NCBI GenBank assembly: GCA_963663035.1 | Contig: OY760074.1 | Location: 1,056,001-1,120,000, forward strand | Reading direction: 5' to 3' | DNA: 64,000 bases | DNA from: Acidobacteriota bacterium | GTDB lineage: Bacteria > Acidobacteriota > UBA6911 > RPQK01 > JADFOI01 | In this document: in pieces, positions 27,716 through 42,767 of the stretch | Layout: each line of letters begins with the position of its first letter | Position numbering within the stretch: the stretch's first letter is position 1 | Made by a program: the position numbers and the translations under genes | Notes under the pieces: generated by a model | Databases searched by the model: none | What the model was told of the DNA's origin: nothing | Seen by the model: only the letters and a program-made list of their open reading frames with translations

Positions 27716-28954
27716 CTACTTGGCTAGTGCGGCAAAAGACTGCTGCGCCGTCAGGACTTGCTCCAGGCGTGCCAGCCGCTCTGTGAGTTCGGCAAGCTGG
27801 TCCTTCTGCACCTGGGTCTGCCGGTGCTGTTTCTGGAGTTCGTTGAGCAACATTCCACCTAACTGTTGATACAAGACTGTCTTGACTCTTTCCTGGTCGT
27901 CATACACAACCAGTTCGGGATACACCTCGGCGACTTCCTCCGCAATAAGACCGTATTGCAGCCGGCCATCACCCGCGTCGTACTCCTTCTTGTAGTGAAA
28001 GGTGACCGGACGCAGGCGCATCAGGCTGGTGCTGGCTTCGCCCATGTCGTGGATGTCCTCCTTGAACCGCTTTGAGGAGGAAGGAACCACCTGAACACCA
28101 GCGATGAAGGCACTTGTTTGACCGTCGCCGATTCTGATGGTGTTCGATTCCGCCGCAAAGCCCTGGTGGCCGATATAGATGTTGTTGTCGCCAGTCGTCG
28201 CGGCAGCTCCTGCGTCCGCACCAATTGCGATGTTGTTATCGCCAATGGTGTTGCTGCCGAGCGCAACGACCCCACTCGCCGTGTTGTTATCGCCTTCGGT
28301 GTTTCTGAAGAGCTCCTGGACTTCACTCGCTGTGTTGTTTATGCCCGTGGAATTTCTGAAGAGCGCGATATATCCGCTGGCAGTGTTATTTTTTCCCGTG
28401 GTGTTGTTTTGGAGCGCAACGACCCCACTCGCCGTATTGTTAGTTCCTTCGGTGTTTAAGAGGAGTGCACTGAAACCAATCGCTGTGTTGGATCGGCCGG
28501 TGATATTCTCTCGGAGCGCACCGCTCCCAGTCGCTGTGTTGCCTCGGTCGGTCGTGTTCTCTCGAAGGGTATTGAAACCCATCGCTGTGTTGAATGCGCC
28601 GGTGGTGTTGTTCTGGAATGAATTGCCTCCCAGCCTGCTGTTGTTGCCAACGGTGGCGACCCTTGGACCAAAGGTCACATCCATCGAAGACATTCCCATA
28701 TCAGTGGAGACAACGACCAGAAAGGTTCCTCGGGGGTCTGTGAATGACAGCGCAGCCTCTATGGACGTACTGGTTGAAGAGTTGACTCCCAGCTCCTCCA
28801 GCGTACCGAGGTCGGTGCCCATAAAGACTTGGAGGCCAGCACCGAAATCGTCGCCGAAGATGGTAAGCGTTCCCTCATCCAAATTCACTACTGCGTTTGT
28901 CAGGAAGGGCGCTTGCCCAAAACTCGGCACTGTCCACAAAAAAAAGATCACCAT
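27716..28954 (-). CDS. trimeric fibre/adhesin-like protein with 14-aa Asn/Thr/Gly repeats and C-terminal peptidase S74 chaperone domain
   Basis: About 10 repeats NTTGxxNTAxGxxAL; SSKRFKEDI..LRPVTFHYK..QYGLIAEEV; coiled-coil tail. The original start is probably 28988, now out of frame. Confidence 0.85.
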   Translation of the reverse strand: MVIFFLWTVPSFGQAPFLTNAVVNLDEGTLTIFGDDFGAGLQVFMGTDLGTLEELGVNSSTSTSIEAALSFTDPRGTFLVVVSTDMGMSSMDVTFGPRVATVGNNSRLGGNSFQNNTTGAFNTAMGFNTLRENTTDRGNTATGSGALRENITGRSNTAIGFSALLLNTEGTNNTASGVVALQNNTTGKNNTASGYIALFRNSTGINNTASEVQELFRNTEGDNNTASGVVALGSNTIGDNNIAIGADAGAAATTGDNNIYIGHQGFAAESNTIRIGDGQTSAFIAGVQVVPSSSKRFKEDIHDMGEASTSLMRLRPVTFHYKKEYDAGDGRLQYGLIAEEVAEVYPELVVYDDQERVKTVLYQQLGGMLLNELQKQHRQTQVQKDQLAELTERLARLEQVLTAQQSFAALAK

Positions 28955-30962: not shown

Positions 30963-31457
30963 TCAGTGGCTTACAGCAGCGGAGACTTCCGAACAACTCA
31001 TGTGCAGGATGGCCGCATGGGCGCCAATTTCAGTCAGACCCAGGCTTGTGCTCCCGATCTGATGGCACACCGTGCAGCCGAAGCGCTCAAAGTCGACGCG
31101 GGTTGTCCTCTGTTGCTCGTTCCATTGCGCTTCCGGTACCGAGAGAGTCTCCCACACGGTTGTGAGCATCCCAGGACAGCCTTGAAAGTCTCTGGCCATC
31201 ACTTCACCGTAAGCTGTGAGTCCAAAAACGCCCGTTTGGGTGAGCGAATGGCAAGTCTCACACCCGTAAGAATCATAAACCCACTGGGCAACCTCCCGTG
31301 AGCTTTTTCCCTGGGTGTCGTACTCCAACAGCGAGGTGACCTCAGAGGGCGCGGGAAGTTCGTCCGATTCGGTTCTCTGCCAGAAAAGGAAGCCGAGTAC
31401 AAGAAGAAACGCAATGGAAAAGGGTATCACCCGCATCAAGAGCTTGCGCTTTTCCAT
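30963..31457 (-). CDS. membrane-anchored di-heme cytochrome c
   Basis: N-terminal TM; CETCH and CTVCH in two internally similar halves. Confidence 0.8.
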   Translation of the reverse strand: MEKRKLLMRVIPFSIAFLLVLGFLFWQRTESDELPAPSEVTSLLEYDTQGKSSREVAQWVYDSYGCETCHSLTQTGVFGLTAYGEVMARDFQGCPGMLTTVWETLSVPEAQWNEQQRTTRVDFERFGCTVCHQIGSTSLGLTEIGAHAAILHMSCSEVSAAVSH

Positions 31458-31478: not shown

Positions 31479-33840
31479 TTACCTATCTTCATACATCTCG
31501 GGCAGGGAATAGGTTAGCACCGCATTCACCCACTTGTCCGAGACGATAACGGTCTTACTCTCCGGGTCCAGTACCACGCCACGGGGCTGTTTCAACATGC
31601 CGTTTGGTCCTCCGATCCTCCAGCGAGGCGGGACATCCCCGTTGTCGTCAATACTCCATACGCCCACGAAGGCGCGATTGGATACCGGTTCTTCGCCGCC
31701 CGAGTCCCCAACCACGATCCATCCTCCGGGAGGATGAACGCGGACGTGCTCCAGGCTCTTGAGCCCTGATTGTGGACCCGCGATGACGGATCGCGGTTTC
31801 ACGTTTCCTTCGTCGGTACGATTGAAGATCAGTATGTGTTGTCTTCTGTCTGCTCCACTGCCTCCTGAGCCCACCACGATGAGCAGGTCATGGACCGGAT
31901 CAACGGCGACCGAGAAGGCCCCCAGTTGGGTGTCAGGACCTCGCAGAATTCGAATTGGGGCCACGTCCCCCTCTCCGTCCCGCGGAAACACTAATACGGA
32001 ATCTCTTTGGGGAACAAAAATCTCGTTGTTCACTGCATCGACGGCCAGCTTATCCGGATGGGTCAACTGGGTCAGAGGACCCTGAATGATGCGGATGGGT
32101 GCCTCTTCTCCATCAGCCCCTCCCCGGAAAGTGAGCAGCGCCTGGGCGAAAGGCTGCGGGACGATAATCTCATCGTGAATTTCATCATAGTTGATGGCAT
32201 GCATGGTTCGACCCAAGCGAGTTGCCTGTCCCTCGATCACCCGATTTGCTTTAACTGATCCGTTCGCCATCCTGGCGAATGCCGCAATCTGCGGATGGGC
32301 CACTCAATTGGGAACCAGGATCTCTTTCCGTTTGGTGTCAAATCCTACTGCACCCGGGTTGCCAATCATGAGAGAGGGTTCACCCATGGGGGCGCTGCGG
32401 ATGGTGCGCAAGGGCGGCGTATCGCCTCCAGCCCCACTCGGATAAACGGTCACCGTGTGATTCCCGAAGTTGGTGACCCAAAGCTCGTTGTTCTTGCTGT
32501 CCAGAAAGAGCCCGGTGATCCTGGCGGTTGGTGACCACAAAGCGACGGTTGAACCCGCCCGTATTGACACCCCCTAGAATGCGGATAGGTGCTGTATCTC
32601 CATCGGCGCTGGCATCGAACTGTCGGGGATTCTTGATGCCCGTATTGACACCCCCTAGAATGCGGATAGGTGCTGTATCTCCATCGGCGCTGGCATCGAA
32701 AACCAGTACGGAATCGAGCATGTCGTTGGCCACAAACAGTTCACCGTTCTCCGAGTCAACGACTATTCCAGTGGGCCAGTTCAGCTGAGTTCTGGGGCCT
32801 TCGATGACACGAAGCGGCGGCGTATTCCCGCTAGCGTCCTTTGGATAGACCGTAATGGAAGGCGAGACGAACTGGCCCGAACCGGGAACAACCATATCGC
32901 GTCCCAGTGGCCAATTTTCCTTTCGCGAACCGCTTCCTGAATCTGAGGGGCTGGTTCGGCGCACCGAGCCATGGTTGGCGACGAAGATCAAATTGTTTTT
33001 GGTGTCCAGTGCCATCCCGTGTGGATCTGCCAGGCCCGTCCGGTCACCCTGAAGCAAACGGATGGGGGCCTCCTGTTGTGAGGCCTGCTTGTGAAACACC
33101 ACCACTGCGTTGTCGTGCTGAACGCTCAGGAAGAGTTCCTGGGCTTCTTCGTCTACCGCTATGCCAAAGGTTCCCTGTGGAGTCGCGAGTTCCCGATCGG
33201 GGGCGACGTCTCCCTTGGCTTCACGGGAGAAAACCAGGAGGGTTCTCATGGTGTCGTTATTGACTGCATAGATGTCGCCTGTTTCCTGGTCAATGTAAAG
33301 GCCGCACTGAAACTCGATTTTTGTGTTTAATCCTGCGATAACGCGTTTGGGTTCAGTCATGGCGTTGGGAGAACTATTGGCCAGACGGTCATAGACGAGA
33401 ATCTGAAAGAGATTTTCGTCTGTCACGGCGACTTCATTCCGTTCCAAATCGACCGCCACGGAGCTGAAACCTGCATAGGGATCTCGAATCACCCGCAGGG
33501 GCCTTCGAGTTGAGGTCCCCGCTGTCCCGGCCTGCAAGGCCTCGGTCGTGACTGCCCGAGCTGAGAACTGAGTTTGCTGCCAGAGAGCTGAAACGAAGTT
33601 CGGACTGACTGAGGCTGAGACGGGGAGGCAAGCCTCCCCTCCTTGCATCTCTGGAAAAGGCTGGTAAGAAACGAGTTGAGCGTCACCGGCCAGGTGGCCT
33701 TCAGGAGCCTTCATGGCTGCAGCCAACTCACCGTGGCCAGCTGACGGCCCATAAAAACCCCATCCCGCCACGGCCCCCAGGAGAGCCGAAAAGGCGATCA
33801 CCCTGAGACTCTGAAAGGTGCTGGATTTTTGAGTCATCAT
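31479..33840 (-). CDS. exported NHL/YncE-like multi-repeat beta-propeller protein with in-frame UGA (32304-32306) and a 109-bp frameshifting insertion (32517-32625)
   Basis: Track ORFs 32380-33840, 32304-32570 and 31479-32303 join into one 750-codon frame once the insertion is removed and the UGA is read through. Repeats of type GDxAPxRxIxGxxTxLxxPxGxxVD run throughout. Confidence 0.75.
32263..32294 (-). promoter_or_regulatory. candidate SECIS-like hairpins 3' of the UGA
   Basis: mRNA: UGA GUGGCCCAU CCGCA-GAU-UGCGG CA UUCGCCA-GGA-UGGCGAA. G-initiated loops lie 14 and 31 nt after the UGA. Confidence 0.4.
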
Positions 33841-33847
33841 GAACTCC

Positions 33848-35746
33848 CTAGTTTGAGGACCCCGGTCGGCGGGCCACCAAATCCTCGCGGGTGCTGATGG
33901 TGGCGCCCTCTGGTCTCAGATTGTATTCGTTGGCGAAGTCGTTGTGCAGGAAGATGAACTTGCCTCCCATCATGGTCATCAGCGTCTGGATCTCTGAAAT
34001 CTCCTCCACCGGAATGCTCATGTAGTCACGATCCAGGATGAGTAAATCGGCGAACTTTCCGGTCTCGAGAGAGCCGAGCTGGTCCCCCTTGAGGACGTAA
34101 TTGGCCCCGTTCTGGGTGGCGATCCTCAGCGCGGTTTCCCGGTCCACTCGCTCAGGGGCTCCCCAGACCTTGCCGTCCCTGTCCTTTCGGGTGATCAAGA
34201 GCTGAATTTCGCCCCAGAAGTTGTCGGCCCCCTCCAGGGAAACGTTGATACCGGCGTCGAGCATTGTCTTGATAGGGGCCCAATAGGTATGAGCAACCTC
34301 CTCGCCAAAGGCCTCAGCCACATCTCCCAGGCCGCCCCGGCCGGGGGGAGCGCAGCTCCACATCAGTCCGAGCTTGGCCGCCCGAGCAATATCAGCGGGC
34401 TCGATCAACCGGCAGTGGTCCATGGCCCAGTCCTTGACAGCTCCCGGCCGGGCCCGGTCGATACGCTCATAGGCCGCCATCAGGCGGGAGTGGGAGTCAT
34501 CCCCGGCCACGTGAACATTGGCGGTGCGCAGGCCAGCCTGGGCAAGCTCGTTGTAAAACTCCATGAAGTAGTTGGCCTTGAGGCTGGCTCCAGTCGTGCC
34601 TCCACCGTACTCAATGTCCAGACTGCACTGGCCGCGCGGCCACCACTCGGAGGATGCCGAAAGGGCCGTCACCGAAGCACCTCCGTCTTCGCCCACCGCC
34701 TGGGAGTCTCTCTGGAGGTTGGTGCACATTCTGGAGCCCGACCCATCGACTGCCCGGGCACTTATGGAAGAGATAAAGAGAATGTCGGTACCGTCGCCCA
34801 TCTTGAAGGGCGTCAGGTCCGCACCTGGAATTCCAAAGGTGGACATCTCCCCATAGGCATATCTCAGCGGCATCTGGCCTCGGGAGTCGAGCCATTGATA
34901 GGCCCGTACCGTGGAAGTGTGCAGAGCTCCCGAAATCGTGGTGATACCCGCTGCCGCAAATTCCTCGAGAAGCTGCCTGTACACCATGGCCACGTCTTCT
35001 GGTTCGGGAGCCAGCAAAAAGTCCTCATCCTGATGGAGGATACGTACGGCCGGAGGTTCTATAACGCCCGTCGGCCGGCCACTGGAGTCAATCCAGTAAC
35101 GCCCGTAGGTTTCAACGAAATCTCCGTGCTTGGCCCACAGCGCTTCAATGCCTTTGCTGTTGAGCATCATCCCGTTCACGTACGGTATCCCTATGGTCAG
35201 AGCGATGGGGTTGTCGGGAGCGGCCTTGTCCAGTTCCCATCGGTTCAGGTCGTTAAAGACCAGCTGAGCTTGCTCAGGACCCCTCGGGTTGGTGATGAAG
35301 AAGAGCCACTGGTCTGGCGGGAAGTTAAAGGCCGCAATAATGTCCCGGATCTGCTTGACAACGTCGTCCGTGGTTTTCACCAGTCTAAAGTTCAGAGCAT
35401 ATCTCTGGAGCGCGGTGGCGGACAGCCCACGGGCATAGCTGTTGGCCCCATCCAGATGCTGCTCTTCTATATGCTCGTGCGTGTTGATCAGCCCGGGAGT
35501 CACCGTCTTCCCTTTCAAATCGATCCTGAGCGTGTCGGGGCCGGCCAGGCGGAGCACGTCGTCGTTGCTTCCCACCGCCGCGATCCGGCTGCTGCGAACT
35601 GCCACGGCTTGGGCGGAGCTGAAATTCGAATCCACGGTGAGGATTTTCCCGTTGTACAAAATCGTTTCAGGAGCCTCCTGGGCAGTCGCCAAATGGACAC
35701 TTCCGAAGACACAGAAAATCACTAGGAAAAGACTTGTTAGACGCAT
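33848..35746 (-). CDS. secreted amidohydrolase-3 family protein (divergent)
   Basis: Signal peptide; PETILYNGKILTVD, INTHEH, HVAGD, MDHC, GSLETGKFADLLIL. Confidence 0.85.
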   Translation of the reverse strand: MRLTSLFLVIFCVFGSVHLATAQEAPETILYNGKILTVDSNFSSAQAVAVRSSRIAAVGSNDDVLRLAGPDTLRIDLKGKTVTPGLINTHEHIEEQHLDGANSYARGLSATALQRYALNFRLVKTTDDVVKQIRDIIAAFNFPPDQWLFFITNPRGPEQAQLVFNDLNRWELDKAAPDNPIALTIGIPYVNGMMLNSKGIEALWAKHGDFVETYGRYWIDSSGRPTGVIEPPAVRILHQDEDFLLAPEPEDVAMVYRQLLEEFAAAGITTISGALHTSTVRAYQWLDSRGQMPLRYAYGEMSTFGIPGADLTPFKMGDGTDILFISSISARAVDGSGSRMCTNLQRDSQAVGEDGGASVTALSASSEWWPRGQCSLDIEYGGGTTGASLKANYFMEFYNELAQAGLRTANVHVAGDDSHSRLMAAYERIDRARPGAVKDWAMDHCRLIEPADIARAAKLGLMWSCAPPGRGGLGDVAEAFGEEVAHTYWAPIKTMLDAGINVSLEGADNFWGEIQLLITRKDRDGKVWGAPERVDRETALRIATQNGANYVLKGDQLGSLETGKFADLLILDRDYMSIPVEEISEIQTLMTMMGGKFIFLHNDFANEYNLRPEGATISTREDLVARRPGSSN

Positions 35747-41128: not shown

Positions 41129-42767
41129 CCCGGATTATTCATAAATTCTGAAGAAGGGGTCTGATCGAGGGCACAAAAAGATGCCGTACCTCTTTGATAT
41201 AAAAGGGGTTATGAAACAACTCCAAACCAAAAAGGTACGGCCCAGCGATGCATCAGTCTGCCAGATCAACTTGCCATCTCACCCTGACAGAAAAGTGGTG
41301 GCTCGATTCGATGGAGGCCGGCTCTCCTCCGATGCCGGGCTGCTGTGTCTGTACGCCCTGGATCAACAGCACGGACTGACGGCTGGCTTTGCCTCCTGCC
41401 TGAAGGACGCTCGAGATAGCCGCTACGTCCGCCACCAGATTCGCGAACTGCTCACCCAGCGCAGCTTTCAGATCGTGGCCGGCTATGAGGACTGCAACGA
41501 TGCCGACAGCTTGCGCTCGGATCCCATCTTCAAGACCGTGTGTGATCGGCTGCCGGAAAGCGATCCGGATCTGGCTTCTCAACCCACGCTGTCGCGACTG
41601 GAGAACTCGGTGGACTCGAAGGATCTCACTCGCCTGGGACAGTGGCTGCTGGAGACCTACTTGAAGCACCGCAAGAAGAGCCGGCCCGAGAAGATCATCC
41701 TGGACATCGACAGCACGGATGACGTCACGCATGGGCAGCAGGAGTTCAGCTTTTACCACGGCTATTATCGCGAGCACATGTATCATCCGCTGTTGCTATT
41801 CGATGGCGAGACGGGCGATCTGGTATGTGCGCTACTGCGGCCCGGCAACCAGGGGGCGGCCGCCCACGCGGTGGCGGTTCTCAAACGGGTGGTGGCCCGG
41901 ATGCGCCAGGTTCTGGGATCCGATGTTCCGATCGAAGTGCGAGCCGACAGTGGCTTTGCGACGCCGGCACTGTACGAGTTCTGTGAGGAGGAAAAACTGC
42001 AGTATGTGGTGGGCTTTGCCCGCAACTCCCGGCTGGCGGCCACCGTCGAGCCCTTGGTTGAGCAGGTGCAAGCAGACTATGACGACTCAGGAGAAAAGCA
42101 ACGCCAGTTCACCGAGCTCGTCTATCAGGCCGACAGTTGGGACCGGGAGCGGCGCATGGTGGCCAAGGTGGAAGTGAGCGAGCGCGGGTTCAACCGTCGC
42201 TTTGTGGTCACCAACCGCCAGGATCTCACGGCCGGGCAGCTGTATGACCACTACATCGGACGGGGCCAGTGCGAGAACTTCGTGAAAGCTTTCAAAAAAG
42301 ATCTGGCCATGGATCGCTTGAGCTGCCACCGTTTCCTGGCCAACCAGTTCCGACTCTTCATCCACGCCCTGGCCTATGTCTTAATCCTGCGCCTGCGGGA
42401 TTACCTGTGCGGGACTCCCTGGCACAACCTGGAGATTGAGACGCTCCGCCGCCGCCTGTTCAAAATCGGTGCCCGGGTTCGGGAAACTTCTCGTCGCATC
42501 TGGGTGCACCTGGCATCGTCTTATCCCGAACAAAAGCTCTTCGCATTACTGATGCACCGTCTGTGTCCCACCTGACGGTCCCCTGACTCCCTGCGCCAAC
42601 ACAGATATACAGCCCCCTGCGGGCCGAGCTGTTTCCGGAAGGGGCTCTCGCTTCATCTCTATTCGGCTCAACAAGCTTGGACGCCTTGTAATCGCACCTG
42701 AACACACTCTCAGCCCTGAACTTCCGCAGAAAATCGACACTCACCCCAAACTTATGAATAATTGCGG
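41129..42767 (+). mobile_element. complete IS1380-family insertion sequence
   Basis: TIRs CCCGGATTATTCATAAATT / CCGCAATTATTCATAAGTT (15 of 19 match); CTAG on both flanks (41125-41128, 42768-42771). Confidence 0.9.
41181..42575 (+). CDS. IS1380-family DDE transposase
   Basis: FDGGRLSSDAG, GYEDCND, LASQPTLSRLEN, LDIDST, RADSGF, RGQCEN. Confidence 0.95.
   Translation: MPYLFDIKGVMKQLQTKKVRPSDASVCQINLPSHPDRKVVARFDGGRLSSDAGLLCLYALDQQHGLTAGFASCLKDARDSRYVRHQIRELLTQRSFQIVAGYEDCNDADSLRSDPIFKTVCDRLPESDPDLASQPTLSRLENSVDSKDLTRLGQWLLETYLKHRKKSRPEKIILDIDSTDDVTHGQQEFSFYHGYYREHMYHPLLLFDGETGDLVCALLRPGNQGAAAHAVAVLKRVVARMRQVLGSDVPIEVRADSGFATPALYEFCEEEKLQYVVGFARNSRLAATVEPLVEQVQADYDDSGEKQRQFTELVYQADSWDRERRMVAKVEVSERGFNRRFVVTNRQDLTAGQLYDHYIGRGQCENFVKAFKKDLAMDRLSCHRFLANQFRLFIHALAYVLILRLRDYLCGTPWHNLEIETLRRRLFKIGARVRETSRRIWVHLASSYPEQKLFALLMHRLCPT

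Follow-up and report, generated by a model that had tools for sequence, protein, structure and literature searches.

Can a UGA codon that falls in the middle of a propeller blade specify selenocysteine (Sec) rather than end the protein? The question is raised by a minus-strand gene at 31479-33840 of the window analyzed here (the whole stretch of 64,000 nt, from contig OY760074.1 of an Acidobacteriota bacterium), for which an examination of the nucleotide sequence without database searches (below, the sequence-only reading) had proposed an unrecognized selenoprotein: a beta-propeller with an in-frame UGA, followed by hairpins resembling a selenocysteine insertion sequence (SECIS). It now seems very probable that the gene does encode a member of a genuine, previously uncatalogued bacterial selenoprotein family in which UGA is decoded as Sec. 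Several kinds of evidence support that proposal, among them the alternation of TGA with Cys codons among homologues, a conserved SECIS-type hairpin, a set of Sec genes in the same genome, and retention of the TGA in contigs from public sequencing runs.

The genome of the window (G000) is a single contig of 3.59 Mb, 96.6% complete. Three open reading frames (ORFs) cover the minus strand of 31479-33840, with the following features:

31479..33840, minus strand: the whole putative tandem NHL-propeller selenoprotein gene as assembled, broken by a 109-nt frameshifting insertion.
33840..32380, minus strand: ORF of 486 aa with a basic-hydrophobic N-terminus, in a frame different from that of the ORF ending in TGA.
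33751..33840, minus strand: N-terminal basic and hydrophobic segment MMTQKSSTFQSLRVIAFSALLGAVAGWGFYG, without a twin-arginine motif.
32570..32304, minus strand: ORF of 88 codons, ending ...FDTKRKEILVPN-TGA.
32304..32306, minus strand: in-frame TGA, proposed to be read as Sec, within the motif (I/L)LVPN-U-VxxP; it corresponds to residue 476 of the G003 orthologue described below.
31479..32303, minus strand: C-terminal part after the proposed Sec codon, 274 codons, comprising most of the second propeller and beginning at a GTG adjoining the TGA.

As had been described from the sequence, the ORF ending ...FDTKRKEILVPN-TGA goes on in frame with GTG GCC CAT..., for 274 further codons; the 88-codon and 274-codon ORFs share one frame, up to a TAA at 31481-31479. 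The continuous frame of 750 aa that had also been described is not present in this assembly, where the ORF with the hydrophobic N-terminus and the ORF ending in the TGA lie in different frames. Such a frame is found in an orthologue from the same genus (G003, locus L025; 90.5% identical), whose 750 codons run on in a single frame, with codon 476 as the only internal TGA. After the TGA, the two genes differ at 18, 9, and 40 sites in codon positions 1, 2, and 3, respectively, and of the codon changes over 276 codons 38 are synonymous and 22 non-synonymous; judged by this comparison, the stretch 3′ of the UGA evolves as coding sequence.

The codon used at this site by homologues was tabulated from a scan covering 185,579 species, each by one genome, which yielded 135 relatives; 80 loci were kept, from about 50 assemblies. 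Their labels are mostly Acidobacteria, Terriglobia, Vicinamibacterales, Bryobacteraceae, or Acidoferrum, with single records labeled as other phyla. Both strands of the 80 loci together hold 96 homologous sites, with TGA at 88, TGC at 7, and TGT at 1; TAA or TAG, any other codon, or a shifted spacing was found at none of the 96. In a separate set of 61 genomes (that of the window and 60 relatives), seven contain the family, and all 10 strong matches there (E ≤ 2e-87; 92% to 47% identity) include the TGA. At seven distinct loci it always lies within (I/L)LVPN-U-V(A/V/S)HP. A large protein collection contains at least 1956 uninterrupted full-length homologues, and in 107 of the 109 of these that were aligned (of 120 listed) the residue at the site is Cys; of the other two, one has W and one a gap. 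Entries P0058 and P0133 have W and G, respectively, at the site, as expected from a TGA under gene-caller codes 4 or 25. Among 72 complete family genes, 33 have TGA as their terminal stop, making it the commonest stop of the family, so that it is otherwise an ordinary stop codon in these genomes.

The RNA just downstream was examined in a gap-free alignment of 87 Sec-form sequences (the window and 86 distinct stretches), from -12 to +69 nt around the TGA. Nucleotide conservation in this interval is far above what the protein would require, and two hairpins are found:

32282..32294, minus strand: hairpin 1, CCGCA-GAU-UGCGG, of 5 bp (6 bp in some relatives); its loop begins 14 nt after the UGA.
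32261..32281, minus strand: hairpin 2, the candidate bacterial SECIS (bSECIS), with an 8-bp stem and the loop AGGAU (consensus AGGYU) at 32273-32269.

Two hairpins with G-containing loops at 14 nt (GAU) and 31 nt (the first G of A-GGAU) were precisely what had been noticed in the window alone; across the alignment both prove to be conserved and covarying. In hairpin 1, pair 28-34 is CG in 70 rows and AU in 9, while pair 29-33 is AU in 42, GC in 18, and GU in 9. In hairpin 2, whose inner helix is UUCGCC-AGGAU-GGCGAA (extended to an 8-bp stem by RNAalifold, which predicts this helix independently), pair 42-54 is CG in 61 rows and UA in 26, pair 39-57 is GC in 37, CG in 15, UA in 7, and AU in 6, and 99.8% of the cells for the six inner pairs are paired. 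For the two-hairpin structure as a whole 90.6% of cells pair; sliding the 3′ partners by 1-3 columns lowers this to 37-51%, and in 500 shuffles neither the pairing nor the covariation score was ever as high as observed.

A published bSECIS model specifies a loop of 3-9 nt, a stem of 4-16 bp, 16-37 nt from the UGA to the loop, and a minimum free energy of at most -7.5 kcal/mol, with a G at loop position 1 or 2, after which G or U usually comes (PMC13188914). Hairpin 2 agrees with this model in its loop, stem, and G positions, in its spacing (its loop lies 30 nt after the UGA, with its first G at 31 nt), and in its mean energy over the 87 rows of -10.8 kcal/mol (range -14.0 to -6.9). Since the loop of hairpin 1 is only 14 nt from the UGA, hairpin 2 is taken as the SECIS proper and hairpin 1 as accessory. 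In 84 of the 87 Sec forms, but in none of the 8 Cys forms, the Arg codon that makes the loop of hairpin 2 is AGG, a codon that accounts for 11.8% of Arg codons in long ORFs of the window's genome. All 8 Cys forms have lost the hairpin, with a mean energy of -3.8 kcal/mol over the corresponding stretch. One Cys form (L121) nests in the phylogeny inside a clade of the Sec forms L098, L111, L113, L115, and L116, yet carries substitutions in both hairpins.

Metagenome contigs point independently to an island of conserved nucleotides at the UGA and hairpins: in four runs, many foreign contigs align to 32259-32321 and nowhere else in the gene, where the summed depth is 218-376, compared to 3-12 in most flanking bins. 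An Rfam scan of 32150-32400 (E ≤ 10) gave no SECIS family, and just a chance match to PrrB_RsmZ at 9.2 bits; this is uninformative and does not speak against a SECIS. The SECIS of the selD gene in the same genome is unlike hairpin 2, and no shared SelB-recognition motif was drawn from the two. A strongly conserved two-hairpin arrangement of this kind could extend current models of the bacterial SECIS.

The genes for Sec synthesis and insertion, whose presence the sequence-only reading had made a point to be checked, are all there. Scores for selA (559 bits) and selB (370 bits) are over their cut-offs of 268 and 242 bits; selD (cut-off 125) scores 378 bits at G000:C1:3111136-3112059 (locus L001), and a tRNA-Sec with the anticodon TCA (66 bits; gathering score 47) is found about 10 kb from it, at G000:C1:3121533-3121627 (L004). 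The selD gene carries an in-frame UGA of its own (...VDCAGUASKLAPE...) and so is itself a selenoprotein gene. All seven of the TGA-bearing genomes tested (G000, G003, G010, G014, G015, G064, and G065) have a selA over the cut-off. It was not found in G063, which has a Cys form, although this is an incomplete assembly of 2.1 Mb and its result is not evidence of absence.

If the gene is a selenoprotein gene, why is it broken in the window? When it is aligned with the G003 orthologue there is a single gap, corresponding to an insertion in the window that shifts the frame upstream of the TGA. The sequence-only reading, correct as to the UGA and its surroundings, had overlooked this insertion. It and a related element are as follows:

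32517..32625, no strand assigned: insertion of 109 nt (3n+1) specific to this assembly, which frameshifts the gene.
41181-42575, plus strand: insertion sequence (IS) with a 464-aa DDE_Tnp_1_4 transposase (506 bits), an element of the high-copy type whose interior the 42-nt piece described next matches.

The insertion has two parts. The first 42 nt (32517-32558) are identical to the interior of the transposase gene of a high-copy IS; this 42-mer has 33 exact copies in the 3.59-Mb genome, of which the 32 others are internal to the IS and 30 have identical flanks of at least 70 nt on each side. The remaining 67 nt duplicate neighboring sequence of the gene; the insertion takes in one copy of a direct repeat of 63 nt without mismatches (32557-32619 and 32638-32700). 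In four public runs from four studies (X1, X4, X5, and X9), near-identical contigs (0-5 differences) pass straight from 32516 to 32626, with the TGA retained, in 4 of 4 cases, a comparison of contigs in which rare variants with the insertion could remain, and in which one run may be the source sample and hence not independent. The X1 contig has no differences from the window besides the missing insertion. These contigs also supply the confirmation of the TGA that had been called for. Three other runs, recorded as or guessed to be RNA, had only 6-9% of the sampled words present. Because contigs from all four runs lack the insertion, it is judged to be a probable artefact of chimeric assembly or consensus calling, with the natural gene likely intact. 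A closed, single-contig metagenome-assembled genome can thus still hold chimeric lesions that mimic pseudogenes.

What sort of protein would the intact gene encode? By Pfam, its clearest match is to the NHL repeat (PF01436, 62.2 bits with a cut-off of 20); matches to lactonase and SGL families are borderline, with Lactonase PF10282 narrowly passing (24.1 vs. 21.7). An AlphaFold2 model of the G003 orthologue, built from a 110-row alignment, has a mean predicted local distance difference test score of 89.5 (exceeding 90 almost throughout residues 110-750, and low in 1-110) and a predicted template modeling score of 0.85. It comprises a helix at residues 12-27, a low-confidence linker to about residue 110, and 12 four-stranded blades. 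VIA-align matched residues 119-434 to the NHL domain of TRIM2 (Z 28.8; root-mean-square deviation 2.4 Å over 251 residues) and to NHLRC2 (Z 27.8), and a second residue set spanning about 100-745 to PAL (Z 26.9), followed by gluconolactonases, paraoxonase, and strictosidine synthase (Z 22-24). According to this model the product is two six-bladed NHL propellers in tandem; from the residue ranges in these alignments, the short first strand (116-118) would close the second of them. Searches of other kinds added little: a profile search of solved structures returned only weak NHL-repeat matches (best, TRIM3 with E 7e-9); Foldseek with the whole model found just tandem-propeller proteins (WD40 pairs, LRP6) with TM-scores of 0.25-0.31, uninformative on function; and among NCBIfam models the best score was 18 bits against cut-offs of 350-440, with no selenoprotein model matched.

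The N-terminal segment MMTQKSSTFQSLRVIAFSALLGAVAGWGFYG is a predicted signal peptide or membrane anchor, and the protein is accordingly described here as presumably exported. In the model, residue 476 stands between strand B (470-475) and strand C (481-486) of blade 7, the one that opens the second propeller, so that the TGA does fall within a single blade, as had been deduced from the repeats. The face of a beta-propeller that usually bears the active site is made up of its B-C and D-A loops. Five positions are invariant in 65 complete homologues (U/C476, V477, P480, H511, and D520); H274 and E521 are conserved in 64 of the 65, H425 in 58, and C71 in 55, and 50 of the 65 hold just two or three Cys/Sec positions.

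These features suggest how the protein might be made and might act. The alternation of UGA with Cys, the SECIS-like structure, the Sec genes, and the fold come directly from the data and the model, whereas the insertion of Sec itself, export, and the chemistry of the site are inferences. Decoding would follow the canonical bacterial mechanism: while the ribosome stood on the UGA, SelB carrying Sec-tRNA(Sec) would bind the hairpin that starts 23 nt downstream, a second conserved hairpin being placed between the UGA and this SECIS. The product would be an extracytoplasmic protein of about 750 aa, in which a signal or anchor at the N-terminus is followed by a flexible linker and the two six-bladed NHL propellers. 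Sec, coming directly after strand B of blade 7, would lie in a B-C loop on the face that bears the active site in NHL propellers, and might act as a redox-active nucleophile, or possibly as a metal ligand, together with His511 of the next blade, which is invariant; the resolving thiol could be Cys71 of the N-terminal linker, an almost solitary conserved Cys. A Sec-Cys71 redox pair is proposed on account of the conserved positions and of the two or three Cys/Sec positions in most homologues, with His511 as a conceivable catalytic partner; a metal site formed by Sec and His is an alternative.

How does this compare with known systems? With other selenoproteins decoded by UGA and SelB, such as FdhF and SelD, the family shares an in-frame UGA, a stem-loop of the bSECIS type, Cys homologues, and an association with selA/selB/selC/selD. 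It differs from them in being a tandem beta-propeller with a predicted export signal, in having no UxxC or CxxU around the Sec (the motif is PN-U-VxxP), and in having an extra conserved hairpin between the UGA and the SECIS. Most characterized selenoproteins have thioredoxin-like folds, according to a 2026 review (PMC13188914). Six-bladed NHL propellers of known structure (the NHL domains of TRIM2, TRIM71, and Brat; NHLRC2; SOQ1; and PAL) resemble it in NHL profile and in fold (Z 26.9-28.8), but are just 14-21% identical to it, while here there are two propellers per chain, bacterial, predicted to be exported, and bearing Sec; judging by their titles, none of the listed NHL-type structures is of a selenoprotein. 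The Cys forms within the family are very similar, at about 730-760 aa with the same architecture, 46-57% identity to the orthologue, and Cys aligned to Sec, and differ in having Cys in place of Sec and no SECIS hairpin. They are named “beta-propeller fold lactonase family protein” by NCBI or “DNA-binding beta-propeller fold protein YncE” by JGI. The scores for YncE (NF052280, 18.2 bits vs. 400) and 6-phosphogluconolactonase (NF008258, 18.4 vs. 370) are far below the equivalog cut-offs, and the automatic names are not to be taken as tested functions.

Full-text literature searches turned up no description of an NHL or beta-propeller selenoprotein in bacteria. Among the 119 prokaryotic selenoprotein families and subfamilies in Table 1 of the May 2026 review (PMC13188914) there is no NHL, propeller, or lactonase family, and its text nowhere uses the words NHL, propeller, lactonase, or repeat. 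The main texts of deep-Sep (PMC12013277) and BSepDB (PMC13326102), so far as available, are also without those words, although their supplementary family tables may list the family under another description. The sequence-only reading had treated NHL-like propellers as not known to be a selenoprotein family, and within the bounds of these sources that holds: the family is probably undescribed so far. It would add to the prokaryotic selenoproteins a different fold, the tandem NHL propeller, and a probable extracytoplasmic location.

The family is numerous in sequence databases. The sequence 3′ of the UGA has matches in 3159 clusters of a collection of 5.8 billion proteins; most of the 120 best are about 270 aa long, with 118 within 238-295 aa. 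Of seven C-terminal-half entries examined, six have the codon next to the TGA as their first, and the named ones are mostly called “hypothetical protein.” The Sec forms are thus numerous and annotated as split genes, and where they are cut at the UGA into two “hypothetical” genes the sizes of Acidobacteriota selenoproteomes will have been underestimated. Tandem copies within a few kb were found at 14 loci (L047, L049, L056, L063, L073, L083, L091, L096, L099, L101, L103, L104, L112, and L119), another locus (L081) has two Cys-form copies within a few kb, and genome G010 has six strong matches on separate contigs; on these sequences the family appears to expand by duplication, each copy keeping its own UGA and hairpins. 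None of 200 other genomes of the phylum (at least 80% complete) matched at E ≤ 1e-60, which does not demonstrate absence from the phylum and suggests a patchy distribution.

A FastTree phylogeny of 59 Sec and 43 Cys forms requires at least nine switches between Sec and Cys, eight of them forced by well-supported branches. Sec forms lie on both sides of its midpoint root and all share the same two hairpins; we therefore take Sec to be ancestral in the sampled set and to have been replaced repeatedly by Cys, though only provisionally, since the tree is unrooted. The natural Sec/Cys pairs provided by these switches could be used to study why Sec is retained. In its fullest form, the proposal is that this is the founding beta-propeller selenoenzyme: an exported tandem NHL propeller in which Sec476, His511, and a resolving Cys71 make up a new extracytoplasmic redox or metal-binding site, with Sec and the SECIS ancestral and replaced by Cys at least eight times, and possibly a major uncounted part of the Acidobacteriota selenoproteome. 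We hold this tentatively, at somewhat less than even chances for the whole. If it were true, several paralogues per genome and thousands of environmental copies would make up that uncounted share.

Other explanations of the locus have to be set against decoding as Sec. Gene callers treat such genes as two, and the UGA might truly end a protein of about 475 aa, with one of about 272 aa starting at the adjacent GTG, the hairpins coupling termination to reinitiation, and the two halves assembling afterwards; the TGA and GTG do adjoin in the window, and the C-terminal entries that begin directly after the TGA (6 of the 7 examined) are what would be expected. Yet wherever the TGA is replaced, it is by a Cys codon that fuses the halves (at 8 of 96 sites and in 107 of 109 full-length proteins), and never by TAA or TAG; the codon after it is the non-start GTC or GTA in several rows of the alignment; the break would separate strands B and C of one blade; and the hairpin decays wherever Cys replaces TGA. 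A genuine pair of genes is on these grounds highly improbable. Readthrough of the UGA without Sec, by a near-cognate tRNA (Trp, Cys, or Arg) or under an alternative genetic code, would account for the W and G of P0058 and P0133, which are what a TGA would give under gene-caller codes 4 or 25. Against it, TGA is the commonest terminal stop of the family genes themselves (33 of 72), the full Sec pathway is present and its own selD uses a UGA, and strict alternation with Cys together with a SECIS-type hairpin is the classical signature of Sec, leaving this explanation too with very little probability. A third alternative accepts the selenoprotein family and regards the window's copy as a real pseudogene, the insertion being a genuine lesion made of IS filler DNA and a local duplication. 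It does stand in a single-contig assembly of 3.59 Mb, and the 32 further occurrences of its 42-nt piece provide a source for template switching. Against this, all four runs join 32516 to 32626, in one case with no other difference; an internal transposase fragment with a 67-nt local duplicate resembles a chimeric join, not a product of transposition; and the rest of the gene is undecayed, with the Sec codon and both hairpins intact. A real pseudogene is thus unlikely, although it keeps some weight.

Several observations weigh against the selenocysteine interpretation or the chemistry proposed with it. As assembled, the window's copy cannot yield a full-length product, and it would be a pseudogene if the insertion were real. 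The covariation controls leave in the relatedness of the rows, and the structure was derived from the same sequences. Cys forms also occur in genomes with selA (G061 and G062, where only Cys forms were seen), so the choice between Sec and Cys does not simply track the presence of the machinery. Cys71 lies in the low-confidence linker and is missing in 10 of 65 homologues. Finally, no conserved neighboring gene, over 72 complete loci or the full 80, backs any particular chemistry. Decoding of the UGA as Sec is still the reading that best fits the codon alternation and the loss of the hairpin in Cys forms.

Two genes flank the putative selenoprotein gene directly:

30963-31457, minus strand: 164-aa membrane-anchored dihaem cytochrome c with two CxxCH motifs, directly downstream; also present in G003 and at a few other loci.
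33848-35746, minus strand: Amidohydro_3 protein of 632 aa whose N-terminus is signal-like and whose stop codon ends 7 nt before the start codon of the putative selenoprotein gene.

The cytochrome was considered as a conserved redox partner and rejected: an ORF with CxxCH lies 3′ of the gene at 7 of 72 complete loci, and tblastn finds this cytochrome at 5 of 80. The Amidohydro_3 neighbor, likewise found at 5 of 80 loci, was rejected as a conserved partner as well, and the other neighbors (a 270-aa membrane ORF, a 275-aa ORF, and a GWxTD protein) were found at none of the 80. Somewhat farther along the same strand, an ORF of 412 aa at 27716-28954 (minus) contains Peptidase_S74, an endosialidase chaperone domain of a type that phage tail-fibre-like proteins bear at their C-terminal end.

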